A stretch of DNA of 64,000 bases, taken from the NCBI GenBank assembly GCA_021768185.1, contig JAETNP010000027.1, positions 6,511 to 70,510 on the forward strand. Direction: 5' to 3'. The stretch is from Oscillospiraceae bacterium (GTDB lineage: Bacteria > Bacillota > Clostridia > Oscillospirales > Oscillospiraceae). Position 1 is the first letter of the stretch. Each line of letters starts with the position of its first letter. Under the pieces are notes generated by a model. The model did no database searches. It was not told where the DNA came from and saw only the letters and a program-made list of their open reading frames with translations. Shown in pieces: positions 7,556 to 55,658 of the stretch. The position numbers and the translations under genes were made by a program.

Positions 7556-7561
7556 AGCAAT

Positions 7562-27087: not shown

Positions 27088-27698
27088 CCGGCGGCCCTGC
27101 GGGCCGCGTCCGCTTCCCTTCTATCAGATAGATTCGCCCTGCCGGGCGGGGGCTTACTTTTCCCGCGCGGGAAAAGTAACAAAAGAGCGCTCAAGCGTGT
27201 AGCGCCCGCTAGCGGGCGCTAGCAGCCTAAGCCGCGCTATGCGCGGCCCACGGGAACTACGTTCCTTGAGAATCCTCCTTCATTACGGGGGAATTGATTT
27301 GCACAACCTGGTTCTCCATTCTCCCGTCAGCTCGCATCAGAACCTGCCGGCCTTCTGCGTCTACCCACGGATTCTTACGGTAGATTTCGCTGCGGCGCCG
27401 CTTCTATAACAAGTGCTCGTCCATCGCCGGAACTTCCGGCAAAACGGAGCAGACCAGTATCACGCACCCCGGGGAGTTCGCCCCGCTATACGGTAGGGGC
27501 TGCCGATGACCACGCTGAAATAGACGCTGGAGAGGAACGAAGCGGACGGCAGTAAGTTTAGACCAAACCGACTGTGCCTTGGGCGCAAAACTAATCAAAA
27601 CATGAGGGATTCTTAAACCGCCAGGTTTAAGTGACTTTTTGGGTACTTTTTGTTCACACAAAAAGTACCCGAGGAGTCCGGGGGCGAGAAGCCCCCCC
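27088..27698 (+). repeat. copy A of a hairpin-rich ~0.6-kb interspersed repeat with ~100-nt imperfect terminal inverted repeats
   Basis: Near-identical blocks recur at 46205-46779, 51850-52405 (reverse complement), 55205-55658 (reverse complement) and 33600-33806 (partial). Perfect hairpins include TTACTTTTCCCGCG/CGGGAAAAGTAA, CAAGGAAC-TAC-GTTCCTTG, CTTAAACC-GCCA-GGTTTAAG, TACTTTTTGT-TCAC-ACAAAAAGTA and CCGGGGG-CGAGAAG-CCCCC. Confidence 0.85.
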
Positions 27699-27722
27699 CA
27701 TAGAGAAAGAAAGGAGCACCCC

Positions 27723-28746
27723 ATGGCAGCAATCAAGTATTGGCTCTGGCTGGCAAACCTCCCCAAACTGGGCAGTCAGATGAAACTGACCCTGCTGGAA
27801 CATTTTGGGGAGCCGGACAAAATCTATTACAGCGATAAAGAGGAATACTTCCATGTGGAGGGCATGACCCGCTCCGCGGCGGAGGCGCTGGAAAATAAAA
27901 ACCTTGAGAGCGCGGACCGTATTCTTGGAGACTGCGACCGTCTGGGCCTGCGGATCATTACCAAACAGGATGCCGAATATCCGGACCGCCTGCGGAATAT
28001 CTATGACCCGCCGCTGCTGCTCTACGTCCAGGGGCGGATGCCCCGGTTTGACGAGGAGGTGGCCATCGCCATGGTGGGCACCCGGCGGGCCTCCTCCTAC
28101 GCCCTGGAAATGGGCGAAAAGCTTGCCTTCCAGATGGCGGGCATGGGAGCTGTCATCGTCTCCGGTCTGGCCTCTGGCGGGGATGCCTCGGCCCACCGGG
28201 GCGCGCTGCGCGCCGGCGGCTTCACCGCCGCGGTCATCGGCGGCGGACACGACATCATCTACCCCCGGGAGAACCAGTACCTCTATGAGGACATCGCCGC
28301 CCGGGGCGTCATCCTCTCTGAGTACCCGCCGGGAACCGAGCATATCGGCGGGCATTTCCCTGTGCGCAACCGCATCATCAGCGGGCTCAGCCTGGGCGTG
28401 GTGGTCCTTGAGGCCCCGGCGAAAAGCGGTACCCTCATCACCGCCGGGCGGGCCCTGGACCAGGGCAGGGACGTGTTCGCCATTCCCGGACAGGTAAAAA
28501 CCTGTGAAAAAGCCCGTCCAGCCGGAAAAGCCGCTGCTGGACCTCTCGGGAGACCACGGTCTCACCGACGATCAGCTGCGTATCGTTCGGGCTCTGGACG
28601 GACGCACGGTGCAGGTGGACGATCTGGTGGAGGAAACGCAAATTCCCACCCGCCGGGTCCTCTCCGCCCTGACTGTGCTGGAACTGGACAGGATCGTGAC
28701 CCAGGAGAGCGGAAAGCGCTTCTCCCTGGCTGTCGCGCTCAAATAA
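27723..28746 (+). pseudogene. dprA: DNA-processing protein DprA, apparently frameshifted (C-terminal winged-helix domain lies in the +1 frame)
   Basis: SAM-like N-terminus and Rossmann core (MVGTRRAS.YA ... VSGLASGGDA ... VLEAPAKSGTLITAGRALDQGRDVFAIPGQ) read in frame 0 up to ~28493. Beyond that, frame 0 gives an R/G-rich nonsense tail. A DprA_WH-like sequence (LTDDQLRIVRAL...VDDLVEETQIP.RRVLSALTVLELDRIV) is in the frame of ORF 28504-28746. Confidence 0.7.
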
Positions 28747-28834
28747 AAGAAGGAAAAGTAAGGGACCGTCATCGGGACGCAAGGCGTTCGGATGGCCGGT
28801 CCCGGCGGCCGTAAGGCCGCCCAGGAGGAAATCA

Positions 28835-31177
28835 ATGGCAAAATCGAGTCTCGTGATCGTGGAGTCTCCCGCCAAAGCGAAGACCATCGGAAAGTATCTG
28901 GGTCCCGGCTATCAGGTGAAGGCCTGCATGGGCCATCTGCGGGACCTGCCCAAGAGCACCCTGGGGGTGGACATCGAAAACAACTTCGAGCCCAAGTACT
29001 GCCCCATCAAGGGAAAGGAAGATATCATCAGCGACCTGAAAAAGTCCGCCAAGGCCAGCGACACCGTGTTTCTGGCAACCGACCCGGACCGTGAAGGGGA
29101 GGCCATCAGCTGGCACCTCAAGGAGCTGCTGGGTCTGGCGGACGAAAAAGCCCGCCGGGTGACCTTTAACGAGATCACCAAACGGGTGGTCAGCGAATCC
29201 ATCGCCCGGCCCCGGGAGATCGACCAGAGTCTGGTGGACGCCCAGCAGGCCCGGCGCATCCTGGACCGGATCGTGGGCTATCAGCTCTCGCCCCTGCTGT
29301 GGAAGAAGATCCGCAGCGGACTGTCCGCCGGACGGGTCCAGTCCGTAGCCACCCGGATGGTCTGTGACCGGGAGCATGAGATCGCGGCGTTCAAGCCCCA
29401 GGAGTACTGGTCCCTGGACGCCAGGCTGACTCCCGACGGCACTGAGCGCAGCGCTTTCCTGGCCCACTACCATGGGGAAAACGGGAAGAAAAAAGAGCTG
29501 AATTCCATAGAAGAAGTGGAAGCGGTGACGGCGGCTCTGAAGGACGCCGCCTTTGCCGTCAAGAGCGTCAAGCGGCAGGAAAAGCAGCGCTCCCCAGCCG
29601 CCCCCTTTACCACCTCTACCCTCCAGCAGGAGTCCAGCCGGAAGCTGAACATGACCCCCCGGCGCACTATGGCTATCGCCCAGCAGCTCTACGAGGGCGT
29701 GGAGATCTCCGGCGAGGGCGCGGTGGGTCTGATTACCTATATGCGTACCGACTCCCTGCGGCTCAGCGACGAGGCGCTGGCTTCCGCCAGGAGCTTTATC
29801 CGGGGCCGCTATGGCGAGGCGTACTGCCCACAGGCGCCCAGAGTTTATAAGACCAAGGCCGGGGCGCAGGACGCCCACGAGGCCATCCGGCCCAGCAATG
29901 TGGAGCTGACACCGGAGATGGTGAAAAAGGATCTGACCGGGGACCAGTACCGGCTGTATGGGCTGATCTGGAACCGGTTCGTGGCCTGCCAGATGTCCAA
30001 CGCCGTCTATGATGCGGTCTCCGTGGAGATCCAGGCGGACGTTCACACCTTCCGGGCCAGCAGCAGCAGCTTGAAATTCTCCGGATACACCGCCGTCTAC
30101 GAGGAGGGCAAGGACGAGGAGAAGGAGGAAAAAGAGGGACGGCTGCCGCCTCTTACCGAGGGGCAGAGCCTCAAAAGTCTGGATTTCCAGCCGGGTCAGC
30201 ACTTTACACAGCCACCGCCCCGGTACACCGACGCTTCCCTTATCCGTGCGCTGGAGGAGAACGGCATCGGACGGCCTTCCACTTATGCGCCGACGGTCAG
30301 TACCATTCTGGACCGGGAGTATGTGGTCAAGGACGGAAAGTACCTCCACACTACGCCCCTGGGCGAGGTGGTCAACGGGCTCATGGAGGACAAATTCTCC
30401 GACATTGTGGACACCGGATTCACCGCCAGCATGGAGAAGGAACTGGATGACGTGGAGGCCGGAAACAAGCAGTGGAAGGAACTGCTGCGGGAATTCTATA
30501 CGCCTTTCCGGGCGGAGCTGGACCAGGCGGAGAAAGATCTGGAGGGCGTGCGGCTGAAAGTGCCGGACGAGGTCTCTGAAGAGGTTTGCGACCTGTGTGG
30601 ACGGCAGATGGTCATCAAGAGCGGACGGTTCGGGCGGTTCCTGGCCTGCCCGGGATATCCGGAGTGTACCTTTACCAAGCCGCTGGTGGTGGCTATGCCG
30701 GGACGGTGCCCCAAATGCGGGGGACGGCTCATGAAGCGTACCGGCAACAGCAAGAAAACCGGCAAGCAGTATACTTACTACTGCTGTGAGCGGATGACCA
30801 GCAAGGACGAAAATAACCGGTGCGATTTCATGACCTGGGATGTGCCGGTGGCGGACGACTGCCCCGTCTGCGGCGAAACCATGTTCAAAAAGGCGGGGAA
30901 GGGATTCAAAAAGCCCTTCTGCATCAACGAAAAGTGCGAGAATTTTACGCCGGAGGAAAAACGGGGCGGCTGGAAGAAGAAAGAAACCTCCGCAGATGGG
31001 GACGAGCCCGCGGCGGAAAAGGCCCCCGCTAAAAAATCCGCCGCCGCCCAAAAGACAACTACTGTCAAGAAAACTGCGGCGGCAAAGAAAACCACCACGG
31101 CAAAAAAGACGGCGGCATCCAAGAAAACAACTGCCACCAAGAAGACTACTGCAAAGAAAACGGCGGAGAAGAAATAA
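28835..31177 (+). CDS. topA: DNA topoisomerase I
   Basis: Toprim start LVIVESPAKAKTIGKYLG, catalytic-region YMRTDS, several C4 zinc ribbons, and a Lys/Thr/Ala-rich tail. Confidence 0.95.
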   Translation: MAKSSLVIVESPAKAKTIGKYLGPGYQVKACMGHLRDLPKSTLGVDIENNFEPKYCPIKGKEDIISDLKKSAKASDTVFLATDPDREGEAISWHLKELLGLADEKARRVTFNEITKRVVSESIARPREIDQSLVDAQQARRILDRIVGYQLSPLLWKKIRSGLSAGRVQSVATRMVCDREHEIAAFKPQEYWSLDARLTPDGTERSAFLAHYHGENGKKKELNSIEEVEAVTAALKDAAFAVKSVKRQEKQRSPAAPFTTSTLQQESSRKLNMTPRRTMAIAQQLYEGVEISGEGAVGLITYMRTDSLRLSDEALASARSFIRGRYGEAYCPQAPRVYKTKAGAQDAHEAIRPSNVELTPEMVKKDLTGDQYRLYGLIWNRFVACQMSNAVYDAVSVEIQADVHTFRASSSSLKFSGYTAVYEEGKDEEKEEKEGRLPPLTEGQSLKSLDFQPGQHFTQPPPRYTDASLIRALEENGIGRPSTYAPTVSTILDREYVVKDGKYLHTTPLGEVVNGLMEDKFSDIVDTGFTASMEKELDDVEAGNKQWKELLREFYTPFRAELDQAEKDLEGVRLKVPDEVSEEVCDLCGRQMVIKSGRFGRFLACPGYPECTFTKPLVVAMPGRCPKCGGRLMKRTGNSKKTGKQYTYYCCERMTSKDENNRCDFMTWDVPVADDCPVCGETMFKKAGKGFKKPFCINEKCENFTPEEKRGGWKKKETSADGDEPAAEKAPAKKSAAAQKTTTVKKTAAAKKTTTAKKTAASKKTTATKKTTAKKTAEKK

Positions 31178-31182
31178 ACTCT

Positions 31183-31437
31183 TTACACCCGTGACAGCTC
31201 TTGACCAATAGACAGCCCGGCTTGAAAGGCGGCTTTCAGCTCAAGGAAAGAGCTGTTGTTCCTGCTTTGGCGCAGTTCCGTCAGAAGTTCCGCCCGGTCT
31301 GGAGGAAGAAGAGCTTGAATACTTTTCTCTATGCCTTCTTCCTCATGGGCATAGTGCTTATGTTCTAATGTATCTAAATGCGGGTGAAAGTTCTTTTCCA
31401 TTGCGTAATTAAACAACTGTTCTACAGTGTCAGTCAT
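31183..31437 (-). CDS. 84-aa helical hypothetical protein, of a type often paired with XRE regulators in Firmicutes mobile DNA
   Basis: Low-GC ORF divergent from an XRE gene. C-terminal pattern ...FLELKAAFQAGLSIGQEL. Confidence 0.5.
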   Translation of the reverse strand: MTDTVEQLFNYAMEKNFHPHLDTLEHKHYAHEEEGIEKSIQALLPPDRAELLTELRQSRNNSSFLELKAAFQAGLSIGQELSRV

Positions 31438-31475
31438 ATTGCTTCACTCCTTGAATATTATTGTTACGGCCCAAT

Positions 31476-31502
31476 CGGACCGGTTATAGTATAACCGGTC
31501 CG
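31476..31502. promoter_or_regulatory. operator-like perfect palindrome in a divergent promoter region
   Basis: CGGACCGGTTATA-G-TATAACCGGTCCG, 13-bp arms, between the divergent 84-aa gene and the XRE gene. Confidence 0.5.
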
Positions 31503-31534
31503 GACGGGCCTGTCAACCCTTTTGGAGAAATAAA

Positions 31535-31744
31535 ATGTCAAATTTTGCGGAAAGATTGCTTTTGCTGAGAAAAGAGAGAAAATTGAATCAAGAAGATGTG
31601 CTGGAACCGTTTGACCTTTCTGTTCGCACGTATCGCCGCTATGAAACCGGGGAACGCGAAGCGACAATATCCACTCTGTGGAAAATCGCGGATTTTTACG
31701 GGGTCTCTGTAGATTATTTGATTGGACGGTCTGAGGAACGATGA
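31535..31744 (+). CDS. XRE-family helix-turn-helix regulator (69 aa)
   Basis: [19 protein letters not shown] ... [36 protein letters not shown]. Stop overlaps the trmFO start (ATGA). Confidence 0.85.
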
Positions 31745-33051
31745 ATGTAACCGTTATCGGCGCGGGATTGGCGGGAAGCGAGGCCGCGTGGCAGCTGGCG
31801 AAACGGGGCGTCCATGTCACCCTGCGGGAAATGAAGCCCCACAAAATGACACCCGCCCACCATACGCCCGACTTCGCGGAGCTGGTCTGCTCCAACTCCC
31901 TGCGGGGCGCGGGTCTGGAAAACGCCGTGGGGCTTCTCAAGGAGGAGCTGCGCCGGCTGGGAAGCCTCATCCTGGAGGCGGCGGACGCCACCCGGGTGGA
32001 AGCCGGAGGCGCGCTGGCGGTGGACAGGTACGGGTTCGCCGCCTATGTGACCCGTGCCCTCCGGGAACATCCAAACGTCACCGTGGAGGAGGGGGAAGTC
32101 ACCGCGCTCCCGGAGGGGGAGGTGCTGGTGGCTACCGGGCCTCTGACCAGCGACGCGCTGGCGGAACATCTGGCGGCCCTGACCGGCGGCGAGGAGGCGG
32201 CTTTGCACTTCTTTGACGCCGCCGCGCCGCTGGTGAGCTTTGACAGCATCGACATGTCCCGGGCGTGGTTCGCCAGCCGGTACGACAAGGGCACGGCGGA
32301 TTATGTCAACTGCGCCATGGAGAAGGAAGAATATCTCGCCTTCTGGAAGGAACTGTGCGAGGCCCAGGAGGCGGAGGTCCACGGATTTGAGGACAAGAAC
32401 GTCTTTGAAGGATGTATGCCCGTGGAGGTCATGGCCCGGCGGGGTGAGGACACCCTGCGGTACGGGCCGCTGAAACCAAGAGGTTTGAAGGACCCGGCCA
32501 CGGGGCGGGAGCCTTACGCGGTGGTACAGCTGAGAAAGGACAACGCCGAGGGGTCCATCTATAATCTGGTGGGCTTTCAGACCCACTTGAAGTTCGGGGA
32601 GCAGAAGCGGGTGTTCTCTATGATTCCGGCGCTGAAGAATGCGGAATATGTGCGGTATGGGGTCATGCACCGGAATACGTATCTGGATTCCCCAAGGCTG
32701 CTGGACCGGTATTACCGGCTGAAAAGTCAGCCGCGTATTACCTTCGCCGGGCAGATGACCGGGGTGGAGGGCTACGTGGAGTCCGCCGGGTCCGGGTTTC
32801 TGGCGGCGGTGGAACTGGCGAGAAGGTTAAGGGGGGACGCCCCTATTGACTTCCCCAGGGAGACGGCGCTGGGAGCGCTGAGTTTGTATGTCTCCGACGA
32901 AACGGTGAAGGATTTTCAGCCGATGAATATCAATTTCGGGATCATTTCGCCCCTGGGGTACAAGGTCCGGGGGAAGCGGAACAAGAATCAGGAGATCTCT
33001 CAGCGGTCGCTGGAAATCATTGAACGGATGAAACCGGACATTCTGATTTGA
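31741..33051 (+). CDS. trmFO: methylenetetrahydrofolate--tRNA-(uracil54-C5)-methyltransferase TrmFO
   Basis: [19 protein letters not shown] motif, [18 protein letters not shown], and conserved position after topA. Confidence 0.95.
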
Positions 33052-33263
33052 TTGTCAAGGTGCGCTTTGCACGACCTTTTGGTTAGCCCGGTGTGCTGGT
33101 CGGTACCTGACCGGGGTTCGACTTGCTTTAGTGCCTTCAAACTTGGAGGTTTGTCTTCCCTCAATTTGTTTTTGGAGAATAGGGGAAGTTGCTGAATAAA
33201 GGGCAACCTTTGGGAAAATTTTCTTGAAATGCAGGTGTTCAGTGGTATGCAGCAGCTCTGTTG

Positions 33264-33302
33264 CGAACAATATATTCGTATTATATACGCATATATTGTT
33301 CG
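33264..33302. promoter_or_regulatory. 39-bp near-perfect palindrome upstream of the second XRE gene (operator candidate)
   Basis: CGAACAATATAT-TCGTATTATATACGC-ATATATTGTTCG. 12-bp perfect arms, and the centre is also quasi-palindromic. Confidence 0.5.
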
Positions 33303-33326
33303 TGTCAATGGGAAGGAGAAAATTTC

Positions 33327-33545
33327 TTGATTATTTTATCAGAGCGGTTAAAGCAATTGAGAAGTGAAAACCGATTGACACAGCAGAATGTAGCGGACCG
33401 CTTAGGGGTCAGGCTGCGGACTTATCAGTATTATGAGAGCGAAAATGATAAGGCGCACCGCCCGGATTTGGAGACGCTGGTTGTTCTGGCGGATATGTAT
33501 GGGGTTTCTGTAGACTATTTGATTGGTAGGACCGATACGCCGTGA
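33327..33545 (+). CDS. XRE-family helix-turn-helix regulator (paralogue of 31535-31744)
   Basis: TTG at 33327 lies 8 nt after GGAAGGAG. LSERLKQLRSENRLTQQNVA ... RTYQYYESEN ... [19 protein letters not shown]. Confidence 0.75.
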   Translation: MIILSERLKQLRSENRLTQQNVADRLGVRLRTYQYYESENDKAHRPDLETLVVLADMYGVSVDYLIGRTDTP

Positions 33546-33599
33546 ACGGGGCATCTTTCAAATTTGCACCCCCGCCAGACCTCCGTGCCGAGTGCCGCG

Positions 33600-33806
33600 A
33601 GGCAACCAGCAGTATCGTTAGGACCGTGCGCAGAAGTAAGCAGCGGCATCGGCATAATGCACTGGAGGTAGACCGGGAATCTAAAGGTCGTAGCGAAAAT
33701 AATAACCCCCGTAGTGAAGGAGGATTCTCAAGGAACGTAGTTCCTTGAGCGAGCTTTTGGTTCTTTTCCCTCGCGGGAAAAGAACGTCCCCGCCCCGTGG
33801 GCGGAA
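33600..33806 (-). repeat. partial copy E of the interspersed repeat (one terminal arm plus part of the core)
   Basis: CCCCCGTAGTGAAGGAGGATTCTCAAGGAACGTAGTTCCTTGAGCGAGCTTTTGGTTCTTTTCCCTCGCGGGAAAAGAAC matches the reverse complement of the left arm of copy A. The left boundary is approximate. Confidence 0.7.
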
Positions 33807-33819
33807 GAAGGGAGCAGAA

Positions 33820-34836: not shown

Positions 34837-34894
34837 TTGGTACAAAAATAGAAATATTGGGCAAGTCTGCAATGGTTTGCCGGAAAGGTTCTAA

Positions 34895-36157: not shown

Positions 36158-36186
36158 TCAAAAATCGTGCGGTTTTCCGCAAATGC

Positions 36187-40475: not shown

Positions 40476-40498
40476 TTTCCCGCTTTTCAAAAAGTGTT

Positions 40499-41190: not shown

Positions 41191-41199
41191 TTTTTTGTC

Positions 41200-44100: not shown

Positions 44101-44913
44101 GGCCTTTTCCTTGCCGTAGACCTCCTCACGGGCGGCCAGATAGCGCTCATAGGCCGCCTTTACGCTGGTGTCGTATTTCCCGGAGGGGGCCTCAATTTGG
44201 ATATCCTCCAGGTGGGTGGAGAAGGTGGTGTGGCGGCAGTGGTCGGACCAGTAGGTGTCCACCACACGGACCTCGGTGATGGTGGGGTCACGATGTTCGG
44301 TATCCCGGAAGTAGGCCTGCAGGAATTTCAGATCGTCCAGGTCCATGGCGAGGCCCAGCTTGTCCAGCAGGGCGGCGAGGCCCTCCCCGTCCAGGGCGGT
44401 GAAGCCGGTGAGGGTCTCCACCATGGGGGGCGCGGCGTGGGTGCGGACCAGGGTTTCCGGCTTCTCCATGGAGGCCTCACGGCTCTCCACGGGGTTGATG
44501 AGGTAGCTCTTTATTTTGTCCAGGTCCTCCTGGGTCAGCCGGCCCTCCAGCAGGTATACCTTGGCGTGGCGGACCAGGGGGCGTTCTACTCCAGCCATCA
44601 GCTGCACGCACTGGGCGCAGGAGTCGGCGCGCTGGTCAAACTGCCCCGGCAGGGCCTCCACCGCCAGCAGACTGTGGAGATTCCTGGGCTCGGGGAAGGC
44701 CTCGTCCCAGACGACGTCCACCTGGGGCTCGGAGAATACGATATGCTTGGCCTTCTCGTAGACGGCGGGGTCGATGCCCTCCACGTCGTAGCGGTTCAGG
44801 ATGCGGACGTCCTCCAGGTTTTCAACGCCCAGGAAGCCCCGCAGGTCGCTCAGCAGATTTCCCGCCTCCGGGCTGAGACCCTCCCGCTTTTCCACAAAAA
44901 TTCTATAGACCAT
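41200..44913 (-). CDS. purL: phosphoribosylformylglycinamidine synthase, single-chain large type
   Basis: 1237 aa. Contains the FGAM synthase core plus a C-terminal glutaminase with LGICNGFQAL. Confidence 0.95.
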   Translation of the reverse strand: MVYRIFVEKREGLSPEAGNLLSDLRGFLGVENLEDVRILNRYDVEGIDPAVYEKAKHIVFSEPQVDVVWDEAFPEPRNLHSLLAVEALPGQFDQRADSCAQCVQLMAGVERPLVRHAKVYLLEGRLTQEDLDKIKSYLINPVESREASMEKPETLVRTHAAPPMVETLTGFTALDGEGLAALLDKLGLAMDLDDLKFLQAYFRDTEHRDPTITEVRVVDTYWSDHCRHTTFSTHLEDIQIEAPSGKYDTSVKAAYERYLAAREEVYGKEKAAQRPQTLMDIATIGTKVLKKRGLLPELDESEEINACSIHVPAVVDGKEQDWLLMFKNETHNHPTEIEPFGGAATCIGGCIRDPLSGRAYVHQAMRVTGCGDPRASFEDTLPGKLPQRKLATTAAAGYSSYGNQIGLATGHVAELYHPGYIAKHLECGAVVAAAPAANVRRERPAPGDVVILLGGRTGRDGIGGATGSSKSHNLKSLTTMASEVQKGNAPEERKLQRLFRNPVVTKMIKRCNDFGAGGVSVAIGELADGLEIDLDAVRKKYDGLDGTELAISESQERMAVVVSPEDEQQFIFLAETENLEAYRAAVVTESPRMVMKWRGETIADLSRAFLDTNGAVKHAAVSVEEKDLAAMGQPRFRTLREMAASLSCASRRGLVERFDSTIGAGSVTMPFGGKTQRTPAQSMTALLPVLPGQETDQASVMAYGCDPELLSNSPYEGAYASVVSSLAKLVAAGADYKKAYLTLQEFFEKLRSDPERWGKPFAALLGALEAQLDYGCAAIGGKDSMSGSFMDLDVPPTVISFAIAPIKAGEVITPEFKEPGHPVYLFAPTDETAESQTAAWDALHALQRAGKVKAAWAVENGTAEAVMKMSFGNRVGFCASAELEENWYLPFYGAIVAELTEDAVLPGVMKLGVTTADPVITIGDDSASIDELLSLNESILEDVYPTRTAGTGKVEPVTWNGAAPAVMPHGIAQPRVAIPVFPGTNCEYDSTRACLRAGMTVVEDVIRNLTPDTLAQSALELEHSIRNAQIVFLPGGFSGGDEPDGSAKFIVSFLRSPRLTDAIHDLLKNRDGLMLGICNGFQALVKLGLVPFGEIRDTDENCPTLTYNAIGRHQSSIVRTRVCSNLSPWLLETDPGEICSVPISHGEGRFIAPENVLKQLAENGQIATQYVDLTGAPTMDTAFNPNGSLWAIEGVTSPDGRVLGKMGHSERIGPSLYRNVPGNYDMGLFRSAAKYFR

Positions 44914-46187
44914 TACTTCTCCTCCAGCGCTTTCAGCGCCCGCTGGCCGATATCCCGGCGGCAGAAGGCGTTCTCGAAGTGAATGCGGTCCGCCAGGGCG
45001 TAGGCTTTCTTAATGGCGGCAGGCAGGTTCTCCGCTGTCGCCGCCGCGCCCAGGACGCGGCCGCCGTTGGTCAGCAGTTCTCCGTCCTTCCGCACCGCTC
45101 CGGCGATGTAGATGCGCTCATCCGGCTGGGCCGCAGGCAGGGTAATGGGGAAGCCCTTGTCATACTTCTGCGGATAGCCTGCGGAGGCCAGGATGACGCA
45201 GCAGGCGGATTTTTCGCTGAATTTGACTTCCGTGTCCGCCAGAGCGCCCTCGGACACCGCCAGCATGATCTCCAGCAGGCTGCTCTCCAGCAGGGGGAGC
45301 ACCACCTGGGTCTCCGGGTCGCCGAAACGGCAGTTGTACTCGATCACCTTGGGGCCGTCGGGGGTCAGCATCAGGCCAAAGTACAGGCAGCCCTTGAAGG
45401 GCCGCCCCTCCGCCTTCATGGCCCGGATGGTGGGCAGGAAGATCTTCTCCATGCACGACGCGGCGATTTCCGGAGTGTAATAGGGATTGGGGGCGATGGT
45501 GCCCATGCCGCCGGTGTTGAGGCCCTGGTCGTTGTCCAGAGCACGCTTGTGGTCCATGGAGGACACCATGGGGACCACCGTCTCCCCGTCGGTGAAGGAC
45601 AGGACGGAAACCTCCGGGCCGGTGAGGAATTCCTCGATGACTACCGTAGCGCCGCTGTCGCCAAACAGGCGGCCCTCCATCATGGAGCGGACGGCGTCAC
45701 GGGCGGCGCCGCGGGTCTCGCAGATGAGCACGCCCTTGCCCAGAGCAAGGCCGTCGGCCTTGACCACCGTGGGCAGGGGGCAAGTTTCCACGTAGGCCAG
45801 GGCCTTGTCCATATCAGTGAAGGTCTCATAGGCGGCGGTGGGGATGCCGTACTTTTTCATCAGGTCCTTGGAGAACGCCTTGCTGCCCTCAATGACGGCG
45901 GCGTTCTTCCGGGGGCCGAAGCAGGGGAAACCCTCTGCTTCCAGGGCGTCCACCATGCCCAGGACCAGGGGGTCGTCGGGGGCGACGACCACAAAGTCCA
46001 CGTTATTTTCCCTCGCCGCGGACACCGCGGCGGGGATGTCCGTGGCGGAGCCGCCCAGGCAGACCGCGTCGGCGGCGATGCCGCCGTTGCCGGGCAGGGC
46101 GTAGATTTTTTCCACCCGGTGGTCTTCTTTCAGCTTTTTGATGATCGCGTGTTCGCGGCCGCCGCCGCCGATGACAAGGATTTTCAT
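44913..46187 (-). CDS. purD: phosphoribosylamine--glycine ligase
   Basis: MKILVIGGGGREHA start and an ATP-grasp core. Confidence 0.95.
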   Translation of the reverse strand: MKILVIGGGGREHAIIKKLKEDHRVEKIYALPGNGGIAADAVCLGGSATDIPAAVSAARENNVDFVVVAPDDPLVLGMVDALEAEGFPCFGPRKNAAVIEGSKAFSKDLMKKYGIPTAAYETFTDMDKALAYVETCPLPTVVKADGLALGKGVLICETRGAARDAVRSMMEGRLFGDSGATVVIEEFLTGPEVSVLSFTDGETVVPMVSSMDHKRALDNDQGLNTGGMGTIAPNPYYTPEIAASCMEKIFLPTIRAMKAEGRPFKGCLYFGLMLTPDGPKVIEYNCRFGDPETQVVLPLLESSLLEIMLAVSEGALADTEVKFSEKSACCVILASAGYPQKYDKGFPITLPAAQPDERIYIAGAVRKDGELLTNGGRVLGAAATAENLPAAIKKAYALADRIHFENAFCRRDIGQRALKALEEK

Positions 46188-46204
46188 TTCAGCAACCTCC
46201 TTCT

Positions 46205-46779
46205 TGCGGCCCGGAGGGCCGCGGGGGCTTTTTTCTAGCGTTCAGATTCGCCCCTCGCCGGGGCGGGGCTTACTTTTCCCGCGAGGGAAAAGTAACAAAA
46301 GGTCGCTCAAGGAACTACGTTCCTTGAGAATTCTCCTTCATTACGGGGGTGATTAGTTTTGCGCCCAAGGCATAGTCGGTTTTGTCTAAACCTTACTGCC
46401 ATCCGCTTCGTTCCTCTTGTGCGTCTATTTCAACATGCTTGTCGGTGCCCCCTACCGTGTAGCGGGGCAAACTCCCCGGGGTGCTTTTTTGCAGATGGTT
46501 CCGTTAGACCAAATCCCCGTAGATGGCTCTACCCCTTTGAAAGGGCGTCAGCCGGAGTTGGTTGACTACCAGAGTCTAGATCAGATGCCCGAAGGACCGC
46601 TGGTTCACGTGGCACCGCAACTCTTCACCTCCACCGAACCCTCGCAAACCCCTCGCCGAGGACCCGCCGGATAGGCGGGGCTGAGAAGGGATTCTTAAAC
46701 CGTAGGTTTAAGTGGCTTTTTGCCTTCTTTTTGTCCACACAAAAAGAAGGCAAGGAGTCCGGGGGCGAGAAGCCCCCGG
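46205..46779 (+). repeat. copy B of the interspersed repeat (divergent core, arm types swapped relative to the conserved ~106-nt module)
   Basis: Both terminal arms match copy A in the same strand sense. The conserved module GCGCCCAAGG...CCCCGGGGTGC abuts the opposite arm type, and the remaining core is unrelated to copies A, C and D. Confidence 0.8.
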
Positions 46780-46797
46780 GCTATCGAATAGAAGGCG

Positions 46798-47982
46798 TTA
46801 GTGGTGGAACAGCCGCATCCCCGTAAACGCCATCACCATGTCATAATCGTTGCACTTTGCAATAACAAGATCATCCCTGATGGAGCCGCCGGGCTCGGCA
46901 ATATACCGCACGCCGGAGCGGCGGGCCCGCTCAATATTATCCGCAAAGGGGAAGAACGCATCGCTGCCCAGGGCGACGCCCTTCCGATTGTCCAGCCACG
47001 CCCGGGCCTCCTGGGCCGTCAGGGGCGAAGGACGGGAAGTAAAATACTTCTGCCAGTTCCCCTCGTCGCAGACATCCTCCTCGTTGCCGTTGATATAGCT
47101 GTCAATCACATTGTCCCGCTCGGGACGGCCCAGCGAGGGCAGGAAGGGCAGAGAAAGCACCTTGGGATGCTGGCGCAGATGCCAGGTATCCGCCTTGGTG
47201 CCCGCCAGACGGGTGCAGTGAATCCGGCTCTGCTGGCCCGCGCCTACGCCGATGGCCTGGCCGTCCACTGCGTAGCATACGGAGTTGGACTGGGTGTACT
47301 TCAGGGTGATGAGCGCAACGATCAGGTCCCGCTTGGCCTCCTCGGGGAGGTCCTTGTTGGCGGTGACCACGTTCTCCAGCAGATGCGCCCCAATCTTGAA
47401 CTCGTTGCGGCCCTGCTGGAAGGTCACGCCGAACACATCCTTGGTCTCCTGGGGGGCCGGAACGTAGGCGGGGTCAATTTTGACAATGTTGTAATTGCCC
47501 TTCCGCTTGGTCTTCAGGATCTCCAGCGCCTCGTCCGTATAGCCGGGGGCGATAACGCCGTCGGAAACCTCCCGCTGGATGAGCTTGGCAGTGGCCGCGT
47601 CGCACACATCGCTGAGGGCCGCCCAGTCACCGAAGGAGCACAGGCGGTCCGTTCCACGGGCGCGGGCATAGGCGCAGGCCAGAGGGCTCTGGTCCAGCTC
47701 GGGCACGTCGTCCACAAAGCAGGCCTGCTTGAGGGCCTTGCTCAGCGGCAGACCCACGGCGGCGGAGGTGGGGGAAACGTGCTTGAAGGAGGTTGCGGCG
47801 GGAAGGCCCAGGGCCTCCTTCAGCTCCTTCACCAGCTGCCAGGCGTTCAGGGCGTCCAGGAAGTTGATATAGCCGGGCTTGCCGTTCAGGACCTCCAGGG
47901 GCAGGCCGCTTCCATCCCGCATGAAAATCCGGGAGGGCTTCTGGTTGGGGTTGCAGCCGTATTTCAGTTCTAATTCATTCAT
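46798..47982 (-). CDS. purH: AICAR formyltransferase (stand-alone AICARFT domain of PurH)
   Basis: 394 aa. LKYGCNPNQ, FKHVSPTSAA and C-terminal ...GMRLFHH. No MGS/IMPCH domain. Confidence 0.8.
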   Translation of the reverse strand: MNELELKYGCNPNQKPSRIFMRDGSGLPLEVLNGKPGYINFLDALNAWQLVKELKEALGLPAATSFKHVSPTSAAVGLPLSKALKQACFVDDVPELDQSPLACAYARARGTDRLCSFGDWAALSDVCDAATAKLIQREVSDGVIAPGYTDEALEILKTKRKGNYNIVKIDPAYVPAPQETKDVFGVTFQQGRNEFKIGAHLLENVVTANKDLPEEAKRDLIVALITLKYTQSNSVCYAVDGQAIGVGAGQQSRIHCTRLAGTKADTWHLRQHPKVLSLPFLPSLGRPERDNVIDSYINGNEEDVCDEGNWQKYFTSRPSPLTAQEARAWLDNRKGVALGSDAFFPFADNIERARRSGVRYIAEPGGSIRDDLVIAKCNDYDMVMAFTGMRLFHH

Positions 47983-47996
47983 GGTGGTACTCCTTT

Positions 47997-49433: not shown

Positions 49434-49446
49434 GGCGGGTTCTCCT

Positions 49447-50154: not shown

Positions 50155-50759
50155 AACGCATTCTCCTTTTCGTTCACGATCCCGGCGGCGACCAGTTCCG
50201 CCGCCTGGGGCAGCAGGACCCATTCGGCCTGCTCCATCACTCTCCGCTGCAAAATTTCCGGGGTGTCGCCAGGAAGGACGTCCACCGCCTTTTGCAGGAT
50301 GATCTGTCCTCCGTCGGGGATATCGTTGACGTAGTGGACGGTGGCCCCCGTCACCTTCACGCCGTAATCCAGCGCCGCCTGATGGACCCGAAGGCCATAG
50401 AAGCCCTTCCCGCAGAAGGACGGAATGAGGGCGGGGTGGATGTTGATCATGGGGCCGGGGAATTTCTCAACAAAGCCGCCGGAGAGAATCCCCAGGAATC
50501 CCGCCAGGACAACCATGTCAATGTTATGTTCCAGAAGCGCGGACAGAACCTTCTCCTCAAAATTTGGCTCTTTCCGGACAATCAGCGCGCAGTCGATCCC
50601 GGCGGCCTCCGCACGTCCGATGGCTCCAATTCCGGCTTTGTCGGCGATGACCAGGGCGATCTGTCCGCTTTTCAGTTCTCCCCTGGCCTGGGCGTCAATG
50701 AGGGCCTGCAAATTTGTCCCGCCGCCGGAGACCAGGACGGCAATCCGGGCGGTCAGCAC
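50151..50759 (-). CDS. purN: phosphoribosylglycinamide formyltransferase
   Basis: IAVLVSGGGTNLQALID and INIHPALIPSFCG motifs. Confidence 0.95.
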   Translation of the reverse strand: MLTARIAVLVSGGGTNLQALIDAQARGELKSGQIALVIADKAGIGAIGRAEAAGIDCALIVRKEPNFEEKVLSALLEHNIDMVVLAGFLGILSGGFVEKFPGPMINIHPALIPSFCGKGFYGLRVHQAALDYGVKVTGATVHYVNDIPDGGQIILQKAVDVLPGDTPEILQRRVMEQAEWVLLPQAAELVAAGIVNEKENAL

Positions 50760-51793
50760 AGGACCACCTTTTCCTCTCCGGAGACGATCTCACCCATGAT
50801 ATAGGCGTCCTCCCCCTGTTCATGGAGGATGGTCAGGGCCTTATCCGCCTGCTCCTTGGGGACAGTAATACTCATGCCTACGCCCATATTGAAGGTGTTG
50901 TACATATCCCGCTCGGGAATGTTCCCGCTGCGGGCAATAAAATCAAAGATGACCGGCGTACGCAGAGAGGCTTTCTCGATCTTTGCCCCCAGGCCGTCGG
51001 GGATGGAACGGGGGATGTTTTCATAGAACCCGCCGCCGGTGATATGGGAGATGCCGTGGACCTCCACCTGCTCCAGCAGGGCGAGGACGGGCTTGACATA
51101 GATGCGGGTGGGGGTCAGCAGGACCTCGCCCAGGCCCTTGCCGCCCAGAACCTCAATTGGGGTATACAGATGGGCGTGCTCGATATTGAACACCCGGCGG
51201 ACCAGGGAGAAGCCGTTGGAGTGGACGCCGGTGGAGGGCAGGGCGATGACGGCGTCCCCCGCCGCCGTTTTGTTCTTGTCGATGACCTTCTCCCGGTCTA
51301 CCACGCCTACGGTGAAGCCCGCCAGGTCGTAGTCGTCCTCGGCCATCATGCCGGGGTGCTCGGCGGTCTCACCGCCCACCAGGGCGGCCCCGGACTGGAC
51401 GCAGCCTTCGGCCACGCCGGAGACGATGGAGGCAATCTTCTCCGGGATATTTTTGCCGCAGGCGATATAGTCCAGGAAGAAAAGGGGCTTTGCCCCGCAG
51501 CAGATCACGTCGTTGACGCACATGGCTACGCAGTCGATGCCAATGGTGTCGTGCTTGTCCATCAGCTGGGCAATTCGGATTTTTGTACCGACGCCGTCGG
51601 TGCCGGAGACCAGGCAGGGGGCTTTCATTCCGGCGGTGTCCAGCTGGAATAATCCTCCGAAGCCGCCGATGTTCTCCGACATCCCGCGGGTCTGTGTACG
51701 GGCTACGTGCTGCTTCATCAGCTCCACCGCCCGGTAGCCGGCGGTAATATCTACGCCGGCCGCGGCGTAGGAGGCGGAATAGCTCTCGTTCAT
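50753..51793 (-). CDS. purM: phosphoribosylformylglycinamidine cyclo-ligase (AIR synthetase)
   Basis: YAAAGVDI, GGFGGLF, GTDGVGTK motifs. Start at MNESYS. The upstream extension in the ORF track runs into the repeat. Confidence 0.95.
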   Translation of the reverse strand: MNESYSASYAAAGVDITAGYRAVELMKQHVARTQTRGMSENIGGFGGLFQLDTAGMKAPCLVSGTDGVGTKIRIAQLMDKHDTIGIDCVAMCVNDVICCGAKPLFFLDYIACGKNIPEKIASIVSGVAEGCVQSGAALVGGETAEHPGMMAEDDYDLAGFTVGVVDREKVIDKNKTAAGDAVIALPSTGVHSNGFSLVRRVFNIEHAHLYTPIEVLGGKGLGEVLLTPTRIYVKPVLALLEQVEVHGISHITGGGFYENIPRSIPDGLGAKIEKASLRTPVIFDFIARSGNIPERDMYNTFNMGVGMSITVPKEQADKALTILHEQGEDAYIMGEIVSGEEKVVLC

Positions 51794-51849
51794 TACGTCC
51801 TCTCTCTTCTGCGGCCCTGCGGGCCGCTCCAGCTTTTTTCTGTTCGATA

Positions 51850-52405
51850 GCCCGGGAGCTATCCGCCCCCGGACCCCGGACCTACTTTTTGTGTGAACAA
51901 AAAGTAGGCAAAAAGTCACTTAAACCTAGCGGTTTAAGAATCCCTCATTTATTGATTAGTTTTGCGCCCAAGGCACAGTCGGTTTTCTCTAAACTTACTA
52001 CTGTCCGCTTCGTTCCCCTTCTGCGTCTATTTCGGCGTGGTCATCGGTGCCCCCTACCGTATAGCGGGGCCAACTCCCCGGGGTGCGTGACGCTAGTCTT
52101 CCCCGTTTTGCCAGAGGTCCTGGCGATGGACGAACACTGGTTATAGAAGCGGCGCCGCAGCAAGCACTAACGTAAGAACCCGTGGGTAGACGCAGAAGTC
52201 CGGCAGGTTCTGATGCGAATCAAAGGGAGAGTGGAGAACCAGGTTGTGCAAATAAATTCCCCCGTAATTCAGGAGGATTCTCAAGGAACGTAGTTCCTTG
52301 AGCGACCTTTTGTTACTTTTCCCTCGCGGGAAAAGTAAGCCCCGCCCCGGCGAGGGGCGAATCTAATTGATAGATTAGAGGCGGAGGCGGCGCGCAGCGC
52401 CGCAG
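51850..52405 (-). repeat. copy C of the interspersed repeat (full length, reverse complement of copy A)
   Basis: Colinear with the reverse complement of 27088-27698 along its whole length. Fills the purF-purM intercistronic gap. Confidence 0.85.
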
Positions 52406-52406
52406 A

Positions 52407-53828
52407 TTATTCTTTCCCCGTCCAGCAGTACGTGCAGACCTTCTCCTTATCGATCCCGATGGCCTCCAGCAGGCCCTCCAGGGACTGATACCCCAGGGAA
52501 CTGAACCCCATCTCCTCACAGATGGTCTTCAACAAACACTGTCCCCGCTCGCTGGAACAGTCGGCATACTCTTCCAGATGCTCCTGCCCCTCGTCGCCCT
52601 CCAGCTTCTGAACAGTGGCCCGGGCCAGAAGCTCCATATCGGAATTGCTCCGGGAAAAATTCAGATACTTGCACCCGTACATGATGGGCGGACAGGCGGA
52701 ACGCATATGGACCTCCTCCGCTCCGCAGCCATACAAAAACTCAATGGTCTCCCGCAGCTGGGTGCCCCGGACGATGGAATCGTCCACAAACAGCAGCTTC
52801 TTTCCCTCAATCAATTCGGGCACGGGAATCTGCTTCATCTTCGCCACCTGGTTGCGGATGTCCTGATTAGCCGGCATGAAGGACCGGGGCCAGGTGGGCG
52901 TATATTTTACAAAGGGCCGGGCAAAAGCCTTCCCGGACCGGTTGGCAAACCCAATGGCGTGAGGCAGGCCGGAGTCCGGCACCCCCGCCACATAGTCCAC
53001 CTTGGGCAGCTGCCCCCGGGCAATCTCGTCCCGGGCCATGATCTCCCCGTTGCGGTAGCGCATGACCTCTACGTTGACGCCCTCATAATTCGAGTTGGGG
53101 TAGCCGTAGTAGGTCCAGAGAAAGGCGCAGATGCGCATTTTCTCCCCGGCGGGGGACAGCGTGTTCCAGCCCTCCGCCGTCACCTCCACGATCTCCCGGG
53201 GACCCAGCTCATAGGCGTCGTTGTACCCCAGCTTGTGATAGGCGAAGGACTCAAAGGACACGCAGCAGCCATCCTCGTTCTGCCCGATGAGCACCGGCAG
53301 GCGGCCCAGCTTGTCCCGGGCGGCAATAATGCTCTCCTCTGTGAGGATCAGAATAGTAGCAGAGCCGTCGATGACCTCCTGAGCATAGCGGATGCCCTCT
53401 ACCAGGGTGTCCTTCTGATTGATGAGGGCGGCGGTGAGCTCGGTGGCGTTGACCGCGCCGGAACTCATAGCCATGAACTGGCTGCCCTGGCGGCTGAAGT
53501 ACTCCTGAACCAGAGCGTCGGCGTTGTTGATGATGCCTACGGTGGTGATGGCAAAAAGGCCCAGATGGGAGCGGACCAGCAGGGGCTGGGGGTCCGTGTC
53601 GCTGATGCAGCCCACACCGCTGGTGCCGTGGAATTTTGCTACGTCCTTTTCAAATTTTGTGCGGAAAGGCGTATTCTCGATATTGTGGATCTGACGCTGA
53701 AAGCCGTCCTTCTCGTCGTAAACCACCATACCGCCCCGGCGGGTGCCCAGGTGGGAGTGGTAGTCCACACCAAAAAAGATGTCGAGAACACAGTCCCGCT
53801 TTGAAATCGCTCCAAAAAAACCGCCCAA
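52407..53828 (-). CDS. purF: amidophosphoribosyltransferase homologue lacking the N-terminal nucleophile Cys
   Basis: PRTase motif LLFVDDSIVRGTQ and an Ntn-fold N-terminal half. It begins (TTG) M-GGFFG where canonical PurF has CG[IV]FG. Confidence 0.85.
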   Translation of the reverse strand: MGGFFGAISKRDCVLDIFFGVDYHSHLGTRRGGMVVYDEKDGFQRQIHNIENTPFRTKFEKDVAKFHGTSGVGCISDTDPQPLLVRSHLGLFAITTVGIINNADALVQEYFSRQGSQFMAMSSGAVNATELTAALINQKDTLVEGIRYAQEVIDGSATILILTEESIIAARDKLGRLPVLIGQNEDGCCVSFESFAYHKLGYNDAYELGPREIVEVTAEGWNTLSPAGEKMRICAFLWTYYGYPNSNYEGVNVEVMRYRNGEIMARDEIARGQLPKVDYVAGVPDSGLPHAIGFANRSGKAFARPFVKYTPTWPRSFMPANQDIRNQVAKMKQIPVPELIEGKKLLFVDDSIVRGTQLRETIEFLYGCGAEEVHMRSACPPIMYGCKYLNFSRSNSDMELLARATVQKLEGDEGQEHLEEYADCSSERGQCLLKTICEEMGFSSLGYQSLEGLLEAIGIDKEKVCTYCWTGKE

Positions 53829-53880
53829 TGGATGCTCCTTTCCTGCGTTTGGTCAGCAGTGGGTTTATCGTCGTACCCTC

Positions 53881-54591
53881 TTAAGCGCCGAAGACACGGC
53901 GCATCATTTCCTCGTAGGCCTCCTCCACGTTGCCCAGGTCACGGCGGAAGCGGTCCTTGTCCAGCTTCTCGTTGGTCTTGGCGTCCCAGAAGCGGCAGGT
54001 GTCGGGGGAGATCTCGTCCGCCAGGACGATGGTGCCGTCCGGCAGACGGCCGAACTCCAGCTTGAAGTCGATGAGCCGCACGCCGCACTCCGCGAAGAAC
54101 GCCTTCAATACCTCGTTGACCTTCAGGGCCATGGCGCGGATGGTGTCGATCTCCTCCCGGGTGGCCAGCTTCAGGGCCAGGGCGTGGGAGGTGTTCAGCA
54201 GGGGATCATGGAGGTCGTCGTTCTTGTAGGAGAACTCAAAGGTGGGCTCGTCGAAGGGGATGCCCTCCTCCACGCCGTAGCGCTTGGCGAAGCTCCCGGC
54301 GGACACGTTGCGGACGATGACCTCCAGGGGGACGATCTGGACCTTCTTCACCACGGTCTCCCGGTCGTTCAATTCCTCCACAAAGTGGGTGGGGATGCCG
54401 GCGGCGGAGAGCTTTCCCATGAGGAAGTTGCTCATGCGGTTGTTCACCGCGCCCTTGCCGCGGATGGTGCCTTTTTTCGTGCCGTCAAAGGCGGTGGCGT
54501 CGTCCTTGTAGGAGACGATGACCAGATTGGGATCTTCGGTGGCATAGACCTTCTTTGCCTTGCCCTCGTAGAGCTGTTCTTTCTTTTCCAT
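53881..54591 (-). CDS. purC: SAICAR synthetase
   Basis: [10 protein letters not shown] start and [12 protein letters not shown] motif. Confidence 0.95.
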
Positions 54592-54619
54592 AACCGTACA
54601 TCCTCCTGATAATTCAATT

Positions 54620-55150
54620 TTATTTTACAAAACTCACAAAGTCATCAGGGACCAGTTCATAGTCCACAGACGACTGTAATTGACCAAGCTGGTCCTTCCA
54701 CGCGTTTTCCCGCACGCGAACCTTTCGGAACCCCAGCCGCTCATAGACATGCTGCGCCCGCTTGTTGGCGGTATTGGTATCAAGAATGATCTTCTGAAAA
54801 CCGAGATCGTGAAACAGAGAGGAAATCAACATACTCAGGATGATCTTGCCGAAGCCCTTGTCCTGTTTTGAAGCGTCGCATATTTTGATTCCGATTTCCG
54901 CCGTGCCGCCGCCTGAATTTTCGTACATCATTTCCCCGGCAGGGAGGCCGTCTATTTCAATCATCAGTCTCCGGTGCGTTTCATCCGCGTCCTTTGCGAT
55001 GTCTGCGGCGATCCCCGCCGCCGTCTGGCCGGTGCCATTTGGAAAACCTGCATGGGCCATGATTTTTCCGTCATTCCACCAGGCGGACAGCTGAGCCGCA
55101 TCGGCCGGCCCGGCGGTCCGGATGGTAATATGCTCGTATTGTAAAAACAT
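54620..55150 (-). CDS. GNAT-family N-acetyltransferase
   Basis: Acetyl-CoA motif region [18 protein letters not shown]...[13 protein letters not shown]. Confidence 0.8.
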
Positions 55151-55204
55151 GCTTTTATCTTTCTTTGCCGCGCTCCGCGCGGCACGGTAAATTCTTCTTC
55201 AATC

Positions 55205-55658
55205 GGCCCGGGGGCTTCTCGCCCCCGGACTCCTCGCCTACTTTTGCCGCGCGGCAAAAGTAGGCAAAAACGCGCTTAAACCTAGCGGTTTAAGAATCCC
55301 TCATTTATTGATTAGTTTTGCTAACTCCCCGGGGTGGGTAACAGAAGCATCCCCGTTTTACCAGAGGTACTGGCGATGGTGGCAGACTGGTTATAGAAGC
55401 GGCGCCGCAGCAAGCACTCCCGTAAGGACCCGTGGGTAGCCGCAGAAGACCGGCGCACCAACGAAGGATTGTGGGTAGAACCAAACCTAGTACGTCGGAG
55501 GGAAAATAATCACCCCCGTAATGAAGGAGGATTCTCAAGGAACGTAGTTCCTTGAGCGACCTTTTGCTTCTTTTCGTTCGCACGAAAAGAAGGCCCCCGC
55601 CCGGCAGGGCGAATCTATCTGATAGATAGGCGGCGGAGGCGGCGCTGCGCGCCGCAGA
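55205..55658 (-). repeat. copy D of the interspersed repeat (internal ~106-nt module deleted)
   Basis: Same arms and core as copy C, but ATTAGTTTTG is joined directly to CTAACTCCCCGGGGTG at 55320/55321. Confidence 0.85.

Follow-up and report, generated by a model that had tools for sequence, protein, structure and literature searches.

A 64,000-nucleotide (nt) stretch of an Oscillospiraceae bacterium genome (GenBank assembly GCA_021768185.1, contig JAETNP010000027.1, forward-strand positions 6,511 to 70,510; hereafter, the window) contains five copies of a hairpin-dense repeat, named A to E, in the gaps between its genes, and the question raised by this locus is what kind of element these copies represent. 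The initial annotation of the sequence offered two answers, namely, a family resembling miniature inverted-repeat transposable elements (MITEs) or a large structured RNA family. We compared the window with genome and metagenome loci retrieved from its relatives, which are designated here by L-numbers (e.g., L018 and L056). In our view, the family probably consists of dispersed non-autonomous DNA elements, in which deletion derivatives occur together with a gene-bearing form, and which have been gained, lost, and moved at the DNA level.

The existence and positions of the five copies were confirmed. A repeat finder recovered their shared blocks, and a five-way alignment revealed long, near-identical ends common to all of them. 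The core of end 1 (AAGGAAC-N3-GTTCCTTGAGAATNCTCC) occurs five times in the window and that of end 2 three times, while neither was found in dinucleotide shuffles (100 of them for end 1). The description of the two ends as inverted repeats of one another was also borne out, as was the presence of every hairpin listed for them, but their length had been set at about 100 nt, and the inverted similarity extends over approximately 130 nt, from the outermost hairpin through the core into a TGATTAnTTT motif, becoming looser in the tails. The spans of copies A to D likewise required correction, given that the outer GC hairpins belong inside the elements; the revised boundaries are given in the table below.

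Alignment of 58 end-1 occurrences from the window and related genomes, followed by a profile search, showed that the basic repeat unit is an arm of 250-300 nt composed of covarying stem-loops, and that every element end is one arm. The window contains nine of them. Copies A to D comprise two arms each, joined tail-to-tail, and copy E, which had been regarded as partial, is instead one complete arm located directly after the stop codon of a gene for an XRE-family helix-turn-helix protein. The outermost feature of an arm is a GC hairpin (H0; GCGGCCC-TGC-GGGCCGC, with covarying variants), and it is followed inward by a short TCTAACAGTTAGA-like palindrome, a second GC hairpin (H2), an A/T hairpin of 11-12 base pairs (bp) (H3; CTTCTTTTCGT-GTGA-ACGAAAAGAAG), an invariant CAAAA(A)G linker, a hairpin of 7-10 bp (H4), the core GAATCC(T)C(C)T..(TACGGGGG), which can also be written as GAATCCTCCTTCAT..., the TGATTAnTTT motif, and a tail of 110-170 nt. 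H4 reads CTCAAGGAAC..GTTCCTTGAG in type-1 arms and CTTAAACC..GGTTTAAG in type-2 arms, the tails fall into six sequence classes, and some arms have additional hairpins in the H2-H3 or H3-H4 interval, such as the insertion of about 59 nt in copy A. Copy B combines tail classes c and g, and most of the c-type tail of copy D is deleted. In copy B, moreover, an inner block of 135 nt lies on the opposite side relative to the end types; this copy is a different combination of arms and not a variant of copy C.

These hairpins are constrained, their pairing having been maintained through sequence change. In 41 distinct type-1 arms, 98.5% of the alignment cells are paired, with 77 double-sided changes, and in 18 distinct type-2 arms, the corresponding values are 97.6% and 53; none of 500 shuffles reached as high in either set, and sliding the partner by one to three columns left only 41-56% (type 1) and 32-55% (type 2) of the cells paired. 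All changes in H3 and H4 lead from one Watson-Crick pair to another, with no one-sided (G-U) changes, and the mismatches tolerated over all arm hairpins favor neither strand (52 G-T versus 44 A-C). In addition, each dimer holds the arm in both orientations, and a scan of the whole window at Rfam gathering scores returned a ZTP riboswitch outside the copies as its sole match. Taken together, the lack of G-U intermediates, the balanced mismatches, the presence of both orientations, and the absence of an Rfam match for the repeat argue for constraint at the DNA level rather than at the RNA level. An unexpected feature of every arm concerns the 4-nt loop of H3, which is complementary to 3-5 nt located 7 nt 3′ of the hairpin, past the CAAAA(A)G linker. 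These positions covary in both arm types, with pair counts of CG 23/UA 14 and AU 33/CG 4/UA 2 in type 1 and of CG 12/UA 6, GC 15/AU 2/CG 1, and CG 11/AU 6 in type 2.

The repeat family is genome-wide, chromosomal, and restricted to a clade of uncultured, Oscillibacter-like Oscillospiraceae. The end-1 pattern was found at 50 loci in about seven metagenome-assembled genomes of uncultured Oscillospiraceae, Oscillibacter, or Clostridia, often at contig ends, as well as at 81 metagenome loci with 137 arms. Copy C had no BLAST match among phage and plasmid records, and a scan of viral contigs with both end patterns likewise found nothing. Thus, the similarity is not confined to this region as a local duplication, an outcome that the initial annotation had considered, but is shared genome-wide by several species. 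No description of the family was found in searches of the literature on DUF6809, introduced below, or on the MITEs and repetitive extragenic palindromic (REP) sequences of Oscillospiraceae, Oscillibacter, and Clostridia.

According to the profile search, arms occur mostly as convergent pairs between genes, and the spacing of these pairs is bimodal. In the metagenome loci, the two arms of a pair are 403-566 nt apart in 38 cases, 813 nt apart in one, and 980-1084 nt apart in six, and five of these six long pairs (L101, L132, L135, L136, and L158, but not L100) contain two genes detectable by tblastn. This full-length relative of about 1.15 kb comprises an arm, divergent DUF6809 and XRE genes, and a second arm; no arm pair enclosing more than about 1.1 kb was found in approximately 1.2 Mb of loci. 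Pfam assigns the two products to DUF6809 (PF20648; 83 amino acids) and to the XRE-family helix-turn-helix proteins (HTH_3; 70-80 amino acids). A promoter-like palindromic region separates the genes, and each of them reads outward through its arm. The DUF6809 homologues recovered by a protein search are nearly always located beside such an XRE gene, and all DUF6809/XRE pairs from that search with enough surrounding contig are flanked by arms. Most of these DUF6809 genes are on contigs shorter than 1 kb, as would be expected if assemblies break in the arms. The subfamily is small, with 52 representative clusters among 1.84 billion; searches of PHROGs and NCBIfam yielded nothing informative on DUF6809, and its predicted structure is a four-helix bundle of low confidence (pLDDT 67.5, pTM 0.37). 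The observation that no copy contains a credible open reading frame therefore holds for A to D but not for the family, as gene-bearing cassettes exist among the relatives and the window itself has a DUF6809/XRE pair, albeit one without arms.

The DUF6809 proteins of three of the long pairs (L132, L135, and L158) are 100% identical to that of the cassette between prfC and cobT in L018, while the XRE proteins encoded beside them show identities of 99%, 79%, and 78%, respectively. An identical DUF6809 next to differing XRE genes indicates that the cassette is mosaic, and to judge from these sequences, the mosaicism probably arose via recombination in the central region.

Copies A to D are internal-deletion derivatives of this cassette, which have lost both genes while retaining both arms and the last XRE codons. 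Such gene-less derivatives outnumber the gene-bearing form. The same relationship is seen between two retrieved loci, as the gene-less L035 corresponds to the L018 cassette minus 598 nt, comprising both genes and the intergenic region, with 60 nt substituted; the breaks fall about 35 nt short of the DUF6809 stop codon and about 10 nt short of that of XRE. The c-type tails of copies A, B, and C start with ..CACCCCGGGGAG, which is homologous to the XRE stop region of L018 (..AACCCCGGTGAG), and the g-type arm of copy B matches the XRE-side arm of L076 with 89% identity over 293 nt, including the last XRE codons. It is the retention of these codons that identifies the gene-less copies as deletion derivatives. 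Arm E, in turn, comes from the XRE side of a half cassette, and its locus is orthologous to L046 (79% identity over 791 nt). The XRE gene next to it has a perfect TTGACA-17-TATAAT (sigma-70) promoter on its other side, reading away from it into about 215 nt of conserved non-coding DNA, which is kept in L046 and L045 (4491-4641), has no Rfam match, and sits where full cassettes have DUF6809. The segment 33055-33308 may encode a small RNA that has escaped annotation, or it may be a DUF6809 gene in decay.

Comparison of the pur operons of relatives, which we retrieved through their PurM homologues, showed that elements are gained, lost, and exchanged at orthologous intergenic sites. The site of copy C, between purF and purM, is empty in L056 (..GGAGTAA-GCC-ATG.., with a 3-nt spacer and the purM ribosome-binding site within purF), contains an 83-nt remnant in L052/L053 (the outermost 60 nt or so of an arm, with its hairpin and a new ribosome-binding site), and is filled by 613-787 nt in the window, L054, L058, L063, and L064. 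Downstream of purE, at the site of copy D, L052 (17 nt) and L056 are empty, the window and L054 are filled, and no remnant was seen. Between purH and purD, at the site of copy B, L056 has a plain hairpin only, L052 has a remnant with only H3-like and H0-like hairpins, and the window, L054, and L058 are filled. The complete cassette is also found in unrelated surroundings, for those of L068, in a pyr operon, and L074, beside SIR2 and MatE genes, are 99.4% identical over 975 nt. Conversely, orthologous sites in different species often differ in their interior (L033/L043, L003/L035, and window copy C/L058), and we take such differences to reflect exchange between copies by way of the conserved arms. 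At the prfC-cobT site, the DUF6809 proteins of L018 and L083 are 61% identical. Separately, the D-site element of L054 (4406-5039, compared with window 54620-55658) lies between purE and purC without the GNAT gene that is present in the window and in L052, so the gene content beside the element varies between relatives. A search for exact matches to the protein of the window's GNAT gene yielded only a contig of 959 nt.

The elements are placed close to the ends of host genes. The first arm begins 0-4 nt after a stop codon in copies B, C, and D and at many other loci, and 11 nt after it in copy A; for instance, copies C and D and L054 share the junction TAA-TCT-GCGGCG. The opposite arm ends 0-10 nt before a purine-rich ribosome-binding site, such that the outer GC hairpin of copy B adjoins that of purD (AAGAAGGAGG) and the corresponding stretch of purM comes after copy C. 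Given that the empty purF-purM site has its ribosome-binding site inside purF, the filled sites use one that either arrived with the element or evolved on it. At all eight independent gene-bearing sites (prfC-cobT, trkH-trkA, the L044 site, the pyr operon, MFS-HAD, glmM, topA-trmFO, and trmFO-plsX), the XRE gene is transcribed in the same direction as the flanking host genes, and the XRE-side remnant faces the downstream gene in all four dimers of the window. For the tally over all arms given below, the strand of the flanking genes was called with a codon-usage score in place of open reading frame length, which is unreliable in high-GC DNA.

Table. Coordinates, in window numbering, of the repeat copies, the XRE/DUF6809 genes, and the other features discussed in the text.
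Feature	Position	Strand	Description
AT-rich non-coding gap	6721-7562		840 nt
Tyrosine-recombinase fragment	7361-7549	plus	within the gap above
Copy A	27090-27712		tail-to-tail dimer between SpoU-family methyltransferase gene (stop 27081) and dprA (ATG 27723)
Copy A, type-1 arm	27090-27300		extra ~59-nt hairpin insertion at 27191-27249
Copy A, type-2 arm	27588-27712
Copy A, profile-search arm match	27138-27300	plus
Copy A, profile-search arm match	27685-27588	minus
dprA	27723-28814		DprA domain, residues 71-261
Arm-less cassette	31183-31744		between topA and trmFO; XRE stop overlaps trmFO start (ATGA)
DUF6809-like gene of arm-less cassette	31183-31437	minus
Palindrome of arm-less cassette	31477-31501		12+1+12, between the two genes; resembles central palindrome of L018
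XRE gene of arm-less cassette	31535-31744	plus
Conserved non-coding DNA	33055-33270
Sigma-70 promoter	33308..33280	minus	divergent from XRE gene 33327-33545
XRE-family helix-turn-helix gene	33327-33545	plus	72 amino acids, TTG start; 3′ flank is arm E
Arm E	33546-33810	minus	single type-1 arm, class-a tail; from XRE stop codon to plsX ribosome-binding site (plsX ATG 33821)
Copy B	46200-46797		dimer in pur operon (minus strand), between purH-like gene (46798-47982) and purD (44913-46187)
Copy B, outer GC hairpin	46206-46222
Loop-to-downstream complementarity, example	46281-46306
Copy C	51808-52406		dimer between purF stop (52407) and purM start (51793)
Copy C, outer hairpins	51811-51827 and 52387-52403
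Loop-to-downstream complementarity, example	51893-51919
Copy D	55160-55658		dimer between purE stop (55659) and GNAT gene start (55150)
ZTP/ZMP riboswitch	56202-56284	minus	56 bits versus gathering score of 39

Two other features of the window are worth recording. The last 100 or so residues encoded by dprA are of low complexity, and the gene as a whole has a low codon-usage score, which suggests a frameshift or sequencing error at the 3′ end of this gene. In addition, the AT-rich gap near the start of the window contains a decayed tyrosine-recombinase fragment (..FCMHALRHTYATRAI..), whose match to Pfam Phage_integrase is weak and below the cut-off (E = 0.043).

How, then, could such elements be maintained and dispersed? 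If they are indeed non-autonomous DNA elements, their arms would be recognized as folded single-stranded or cruciform DNA by an enzyme encoded elsewhere, movement and the swapping of interiors would take place at the DNA level, and recombination between the many conserved arms would account for the swapping. The gene-less copies found in operons would then be co-transcribed, hairpin-rich spacers, which may affect read-through and mRNA ends without having a dedicated function. The MITE-like character proposed initially is thus upheld in most respects by the long terminal inverted repeats, the lack of coding capacity, the dispersed copies, the filled, remnant, and empty sites, and the existence of a longer relative from which the copies derive by internal deletion; it fails in that this longer relative encodes XRE and DUF6809 proteins and not a transposase.

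Several observations weigh against this account. Neither a transposase nor a recombinase gene was found between or beside arms in the 1.2 Mb of retrieved loci, and a rough tblastn search with an approximate IS200 TnpA query, a weak test that covered about 0.6 Mb of these loci rather than whole genomes, was also negative. No target-site duplication is visible, as there is no direct repeat at the junctions of copies A to D or of L068 and L074, and the insertion junctions are blurred because the filled and empty sites available for comparison come from species that are 10-20% apart in PurM. Many sites are stably occupied across species, for which vertical inheritance, perhaps with some host benefit, is as good an explanation as mobility. 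The arms (76-94% nucleotide identity) are better conserved than either protein (down to about 25-60%), which would be unexpected if the genes drive mobility, and the cassette between topA and trmFO has no arms at all. Lastly, when all arms are considered, tail class is only mildly biased with respect to gene direction, as called by the codon-usage score.

Some of these same observations would be accommodated if the repeats were maintained by the host in the manner of REP sequences and bacterial interspersed mosaic elements (BIMEs). The arm would be the REP-like unit and the dimers would resemble REPINs, an enzyme encoded by a single-copy gene elsewhere would copy or homogenize them, the XRE and DUF6809 genes would be cargo or mere neighbors, and the hairpins would benefit mRNA stability or insulation. 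Lone arms between unrelated genes, the extragenic location of arms close to stop codons, the higher conservation of arms than of cargo proteins, and the continued occupation of sites across species with swapped interiors all agree with this proposal, and the accounts consulted describe systems of REPINs and their associated RAYT transposase as vertically inherited and long-lived (PMC3337134, 10.1101/2022.05.22.493013). However, no RAYT-like or HUH gene was seen, although the only test was the weak one just mentioned, with its approximate TnpA query and 0.6 Mb of sequence. The arms, moreover, have 250-300 nt and five different hairpins and are not single palindromes of 20-40 nt, arms and genes move as one block, as in the pair of cassettes with 99.4% identity, and XRE codons persist in gene-less dimers, which ties the dimers to the cassette and is not what independent insertions of arms would leave behind. 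We therefore regard this proposal as possible but unlikely.

A bolder proposal, which we regard as doubtful and hold with even less conviction, is that the cassette of arm, XRE/DUF6809 genes, and arm is an autonomous mobile element of a new kind, lacking a transposase of any known family, and that the gene-less dimers are its non-autonomous riders. The two small proteins would bring a host enzyme of recombination or replication to the folded-DNA arms, and the covarying pairing between the H3 loop and the sequence past the linker might contribute to the site that is recognized or cleaved. Insertion would occur in the space from a stop codon to the following start codon, and a portable ribosome-binding site together with an outward, XRE-controlled promoter could rewire the expression of the operon.

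Returning to the non-autonomous elements that we favor, their description as a large structured RNA family was not borne out, and we find it improbable that the copies act as structured RNAs, be it as cis-regulatory leaders or large non-coding RNAs, for instance, as 5′ or 3′ stabilizers or processing sites of the flanking cistrons. It is true that covariation is strong, that the elements within operons must be transcribed, and that the loops are often GNRA-like (GUGA and GCGA); likewise, a U-G pair in the core hairpin is conserved on one strand (39 of 41) and followed by a U-rich run, and the core read on the opposite strand gives a perfect Shine-Dalgarno sequence, though one lacking a start codon. 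Nevertheless, beyond the lack of an Rfam match at gathering scores, permissive Rfam E-value scans of copy A and the E locus yielded only noise, and folding each of the six tail classes to a consensus, on either strand, gave noisy results without convincing covariation. The arm is present in sense and antisense within each dimer, the main stems show no G-U intermediates or strand asymmetry, and the mismatches are close to evenly divided. The downstream genes are functionally unrelated (dprA, plsX, purD, purM, the GNAT gene, glmM, cobT, and trkA), gene-less copies have no promoter (none was found in copies A and C), and closely related operons manage without the element. Transcription directed inward meets a weak terminator-like hairpin formed by the core, but the pur genes downstream must still be expressed. 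Group I and group II introns, IStrons, and self-cleaving ribozymes, which were considered on account of a position after terminator-like hairpins, were ruled out, as no ribozyme family was matched. The riboswitch found by Rfam precedes purE, where the pur operon with copies D, C, and B begins.

Invertible phase-variable switches, in which a recombinase would flip the segment between the inverted repeats to switch the downstream gene, are extremely improbable, for although long inverted repeats lie directly upstream of genes and the 135-nt block (Y) stands beside end 2 in copies A and C and beside end 1 in copy B, the orientation of gene-bearing copies at orthologous sites is the same in different species, promoters are lacking in gene-less copies, and no invertase or recombinase gene is nearby. 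Copy B as a simple inversion of copy C was likewise rejected, as its other half is unrelated to copy C.

These elements matter for several reasons. The repeat is abundant in a common, uncultured gut lineage, in which it breaks metagenome assemblies (contigs with purM, for instance, end inside arms), and it explains the gaps of 0.5 kb inside pur and pyr operons. It is also an element that looks mobile, yet whose full-length form has no recognizable mobility enzyme and whose ends are better conserved than its genes. If a mobilizing activity were found, this could represent a new way of moving DNA and provide a function for DUF6809; otherwise, the family would still be useful as a marker and would offer a natural test of the tolerance of operons to hairpin-rich insertions.

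Of the known systems, MITEs and the REPIN/BIME repeats are those that the elements resemble most in the way they work. REPINs are inverted doublets of REP sequences, mobilized by a RAYT whose own gene lies between REPs (PMC3116915, PMC3337134, PMC2817692). As far as these accounts describe them, the repeats of Pseudomonas and enterobacteria are, like ours, extragenic palindromic doublets in inverted orientation, present in many copies near gene ends and within operons, with long vertical persistence and a gene flanked by the same repeats in inverted orientation. Our repeat differs in its unit (250-300 nt with five distinct hairpins and a variable tail, versus one hairpin of 20-40 nt), in the genes that it flanks (XRE and DUF6809 in several copies, versus one HUH (Y1) tyrosine transposase, with no RAYT found here), and in its Firmicute host.

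Bacterial MITEs, such as the Correia elements (CREE) of Neisseria, ERIC, RUP, and BOX, are non-coding and intergenic, have hairpin-forming terminal inverted repeats, are co-transcribed with their neighbors and polymorphic, and originate by internal deletion. Our elements share with them the lack of coding sequence, the terminal inverted repeats, the intergenic location, the probable co-transcription with neighboring genes, the polymorphism between relatives, and the origin by internal deletion, but they are much larger (0.45-0.65 kb), their ends consist of several covarying stem-loops instead of a simple repeat of 20-30 bp, their longer relative carries no transposase, and no target-site duplication was seen. 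In MIC231 of Bacillus cereus, the ends of an element bracket passenger genes without a transposase, and the parent element, IS231, is known. The gene-bearing cassettes resemble it in that their ends also bracket passenger genes without a transposase and mobilization is presumed to come from elsewhere in the genome, but no parent element is known here and the passenger is always the same pair of regulators.

In IS200/IS605 elements, guide and cleavage sites pair over 4 nt at the foot of a hairpin, and the ends are not inverted repeats. Their ends, and those of palindrome-associated transposable elements (PATEs), as far as the source covers them (PMC6006769), recall our arms in having subterminal hairpins with a 4-nt Watson-Crick complementarity beside a hairpin. 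Here, however, the ends are inverted repeats, the complementarity involves the loop of H3 and a sequence 7 nt downstream and not the foot of the hairpin, and no TnpA or TnpB was found. The repeat described here is not a structured-RNA gene; it is a MITE/REPIN-like family, unmatched in the collections and literature searched, with an unusual, gene-bearing partner.

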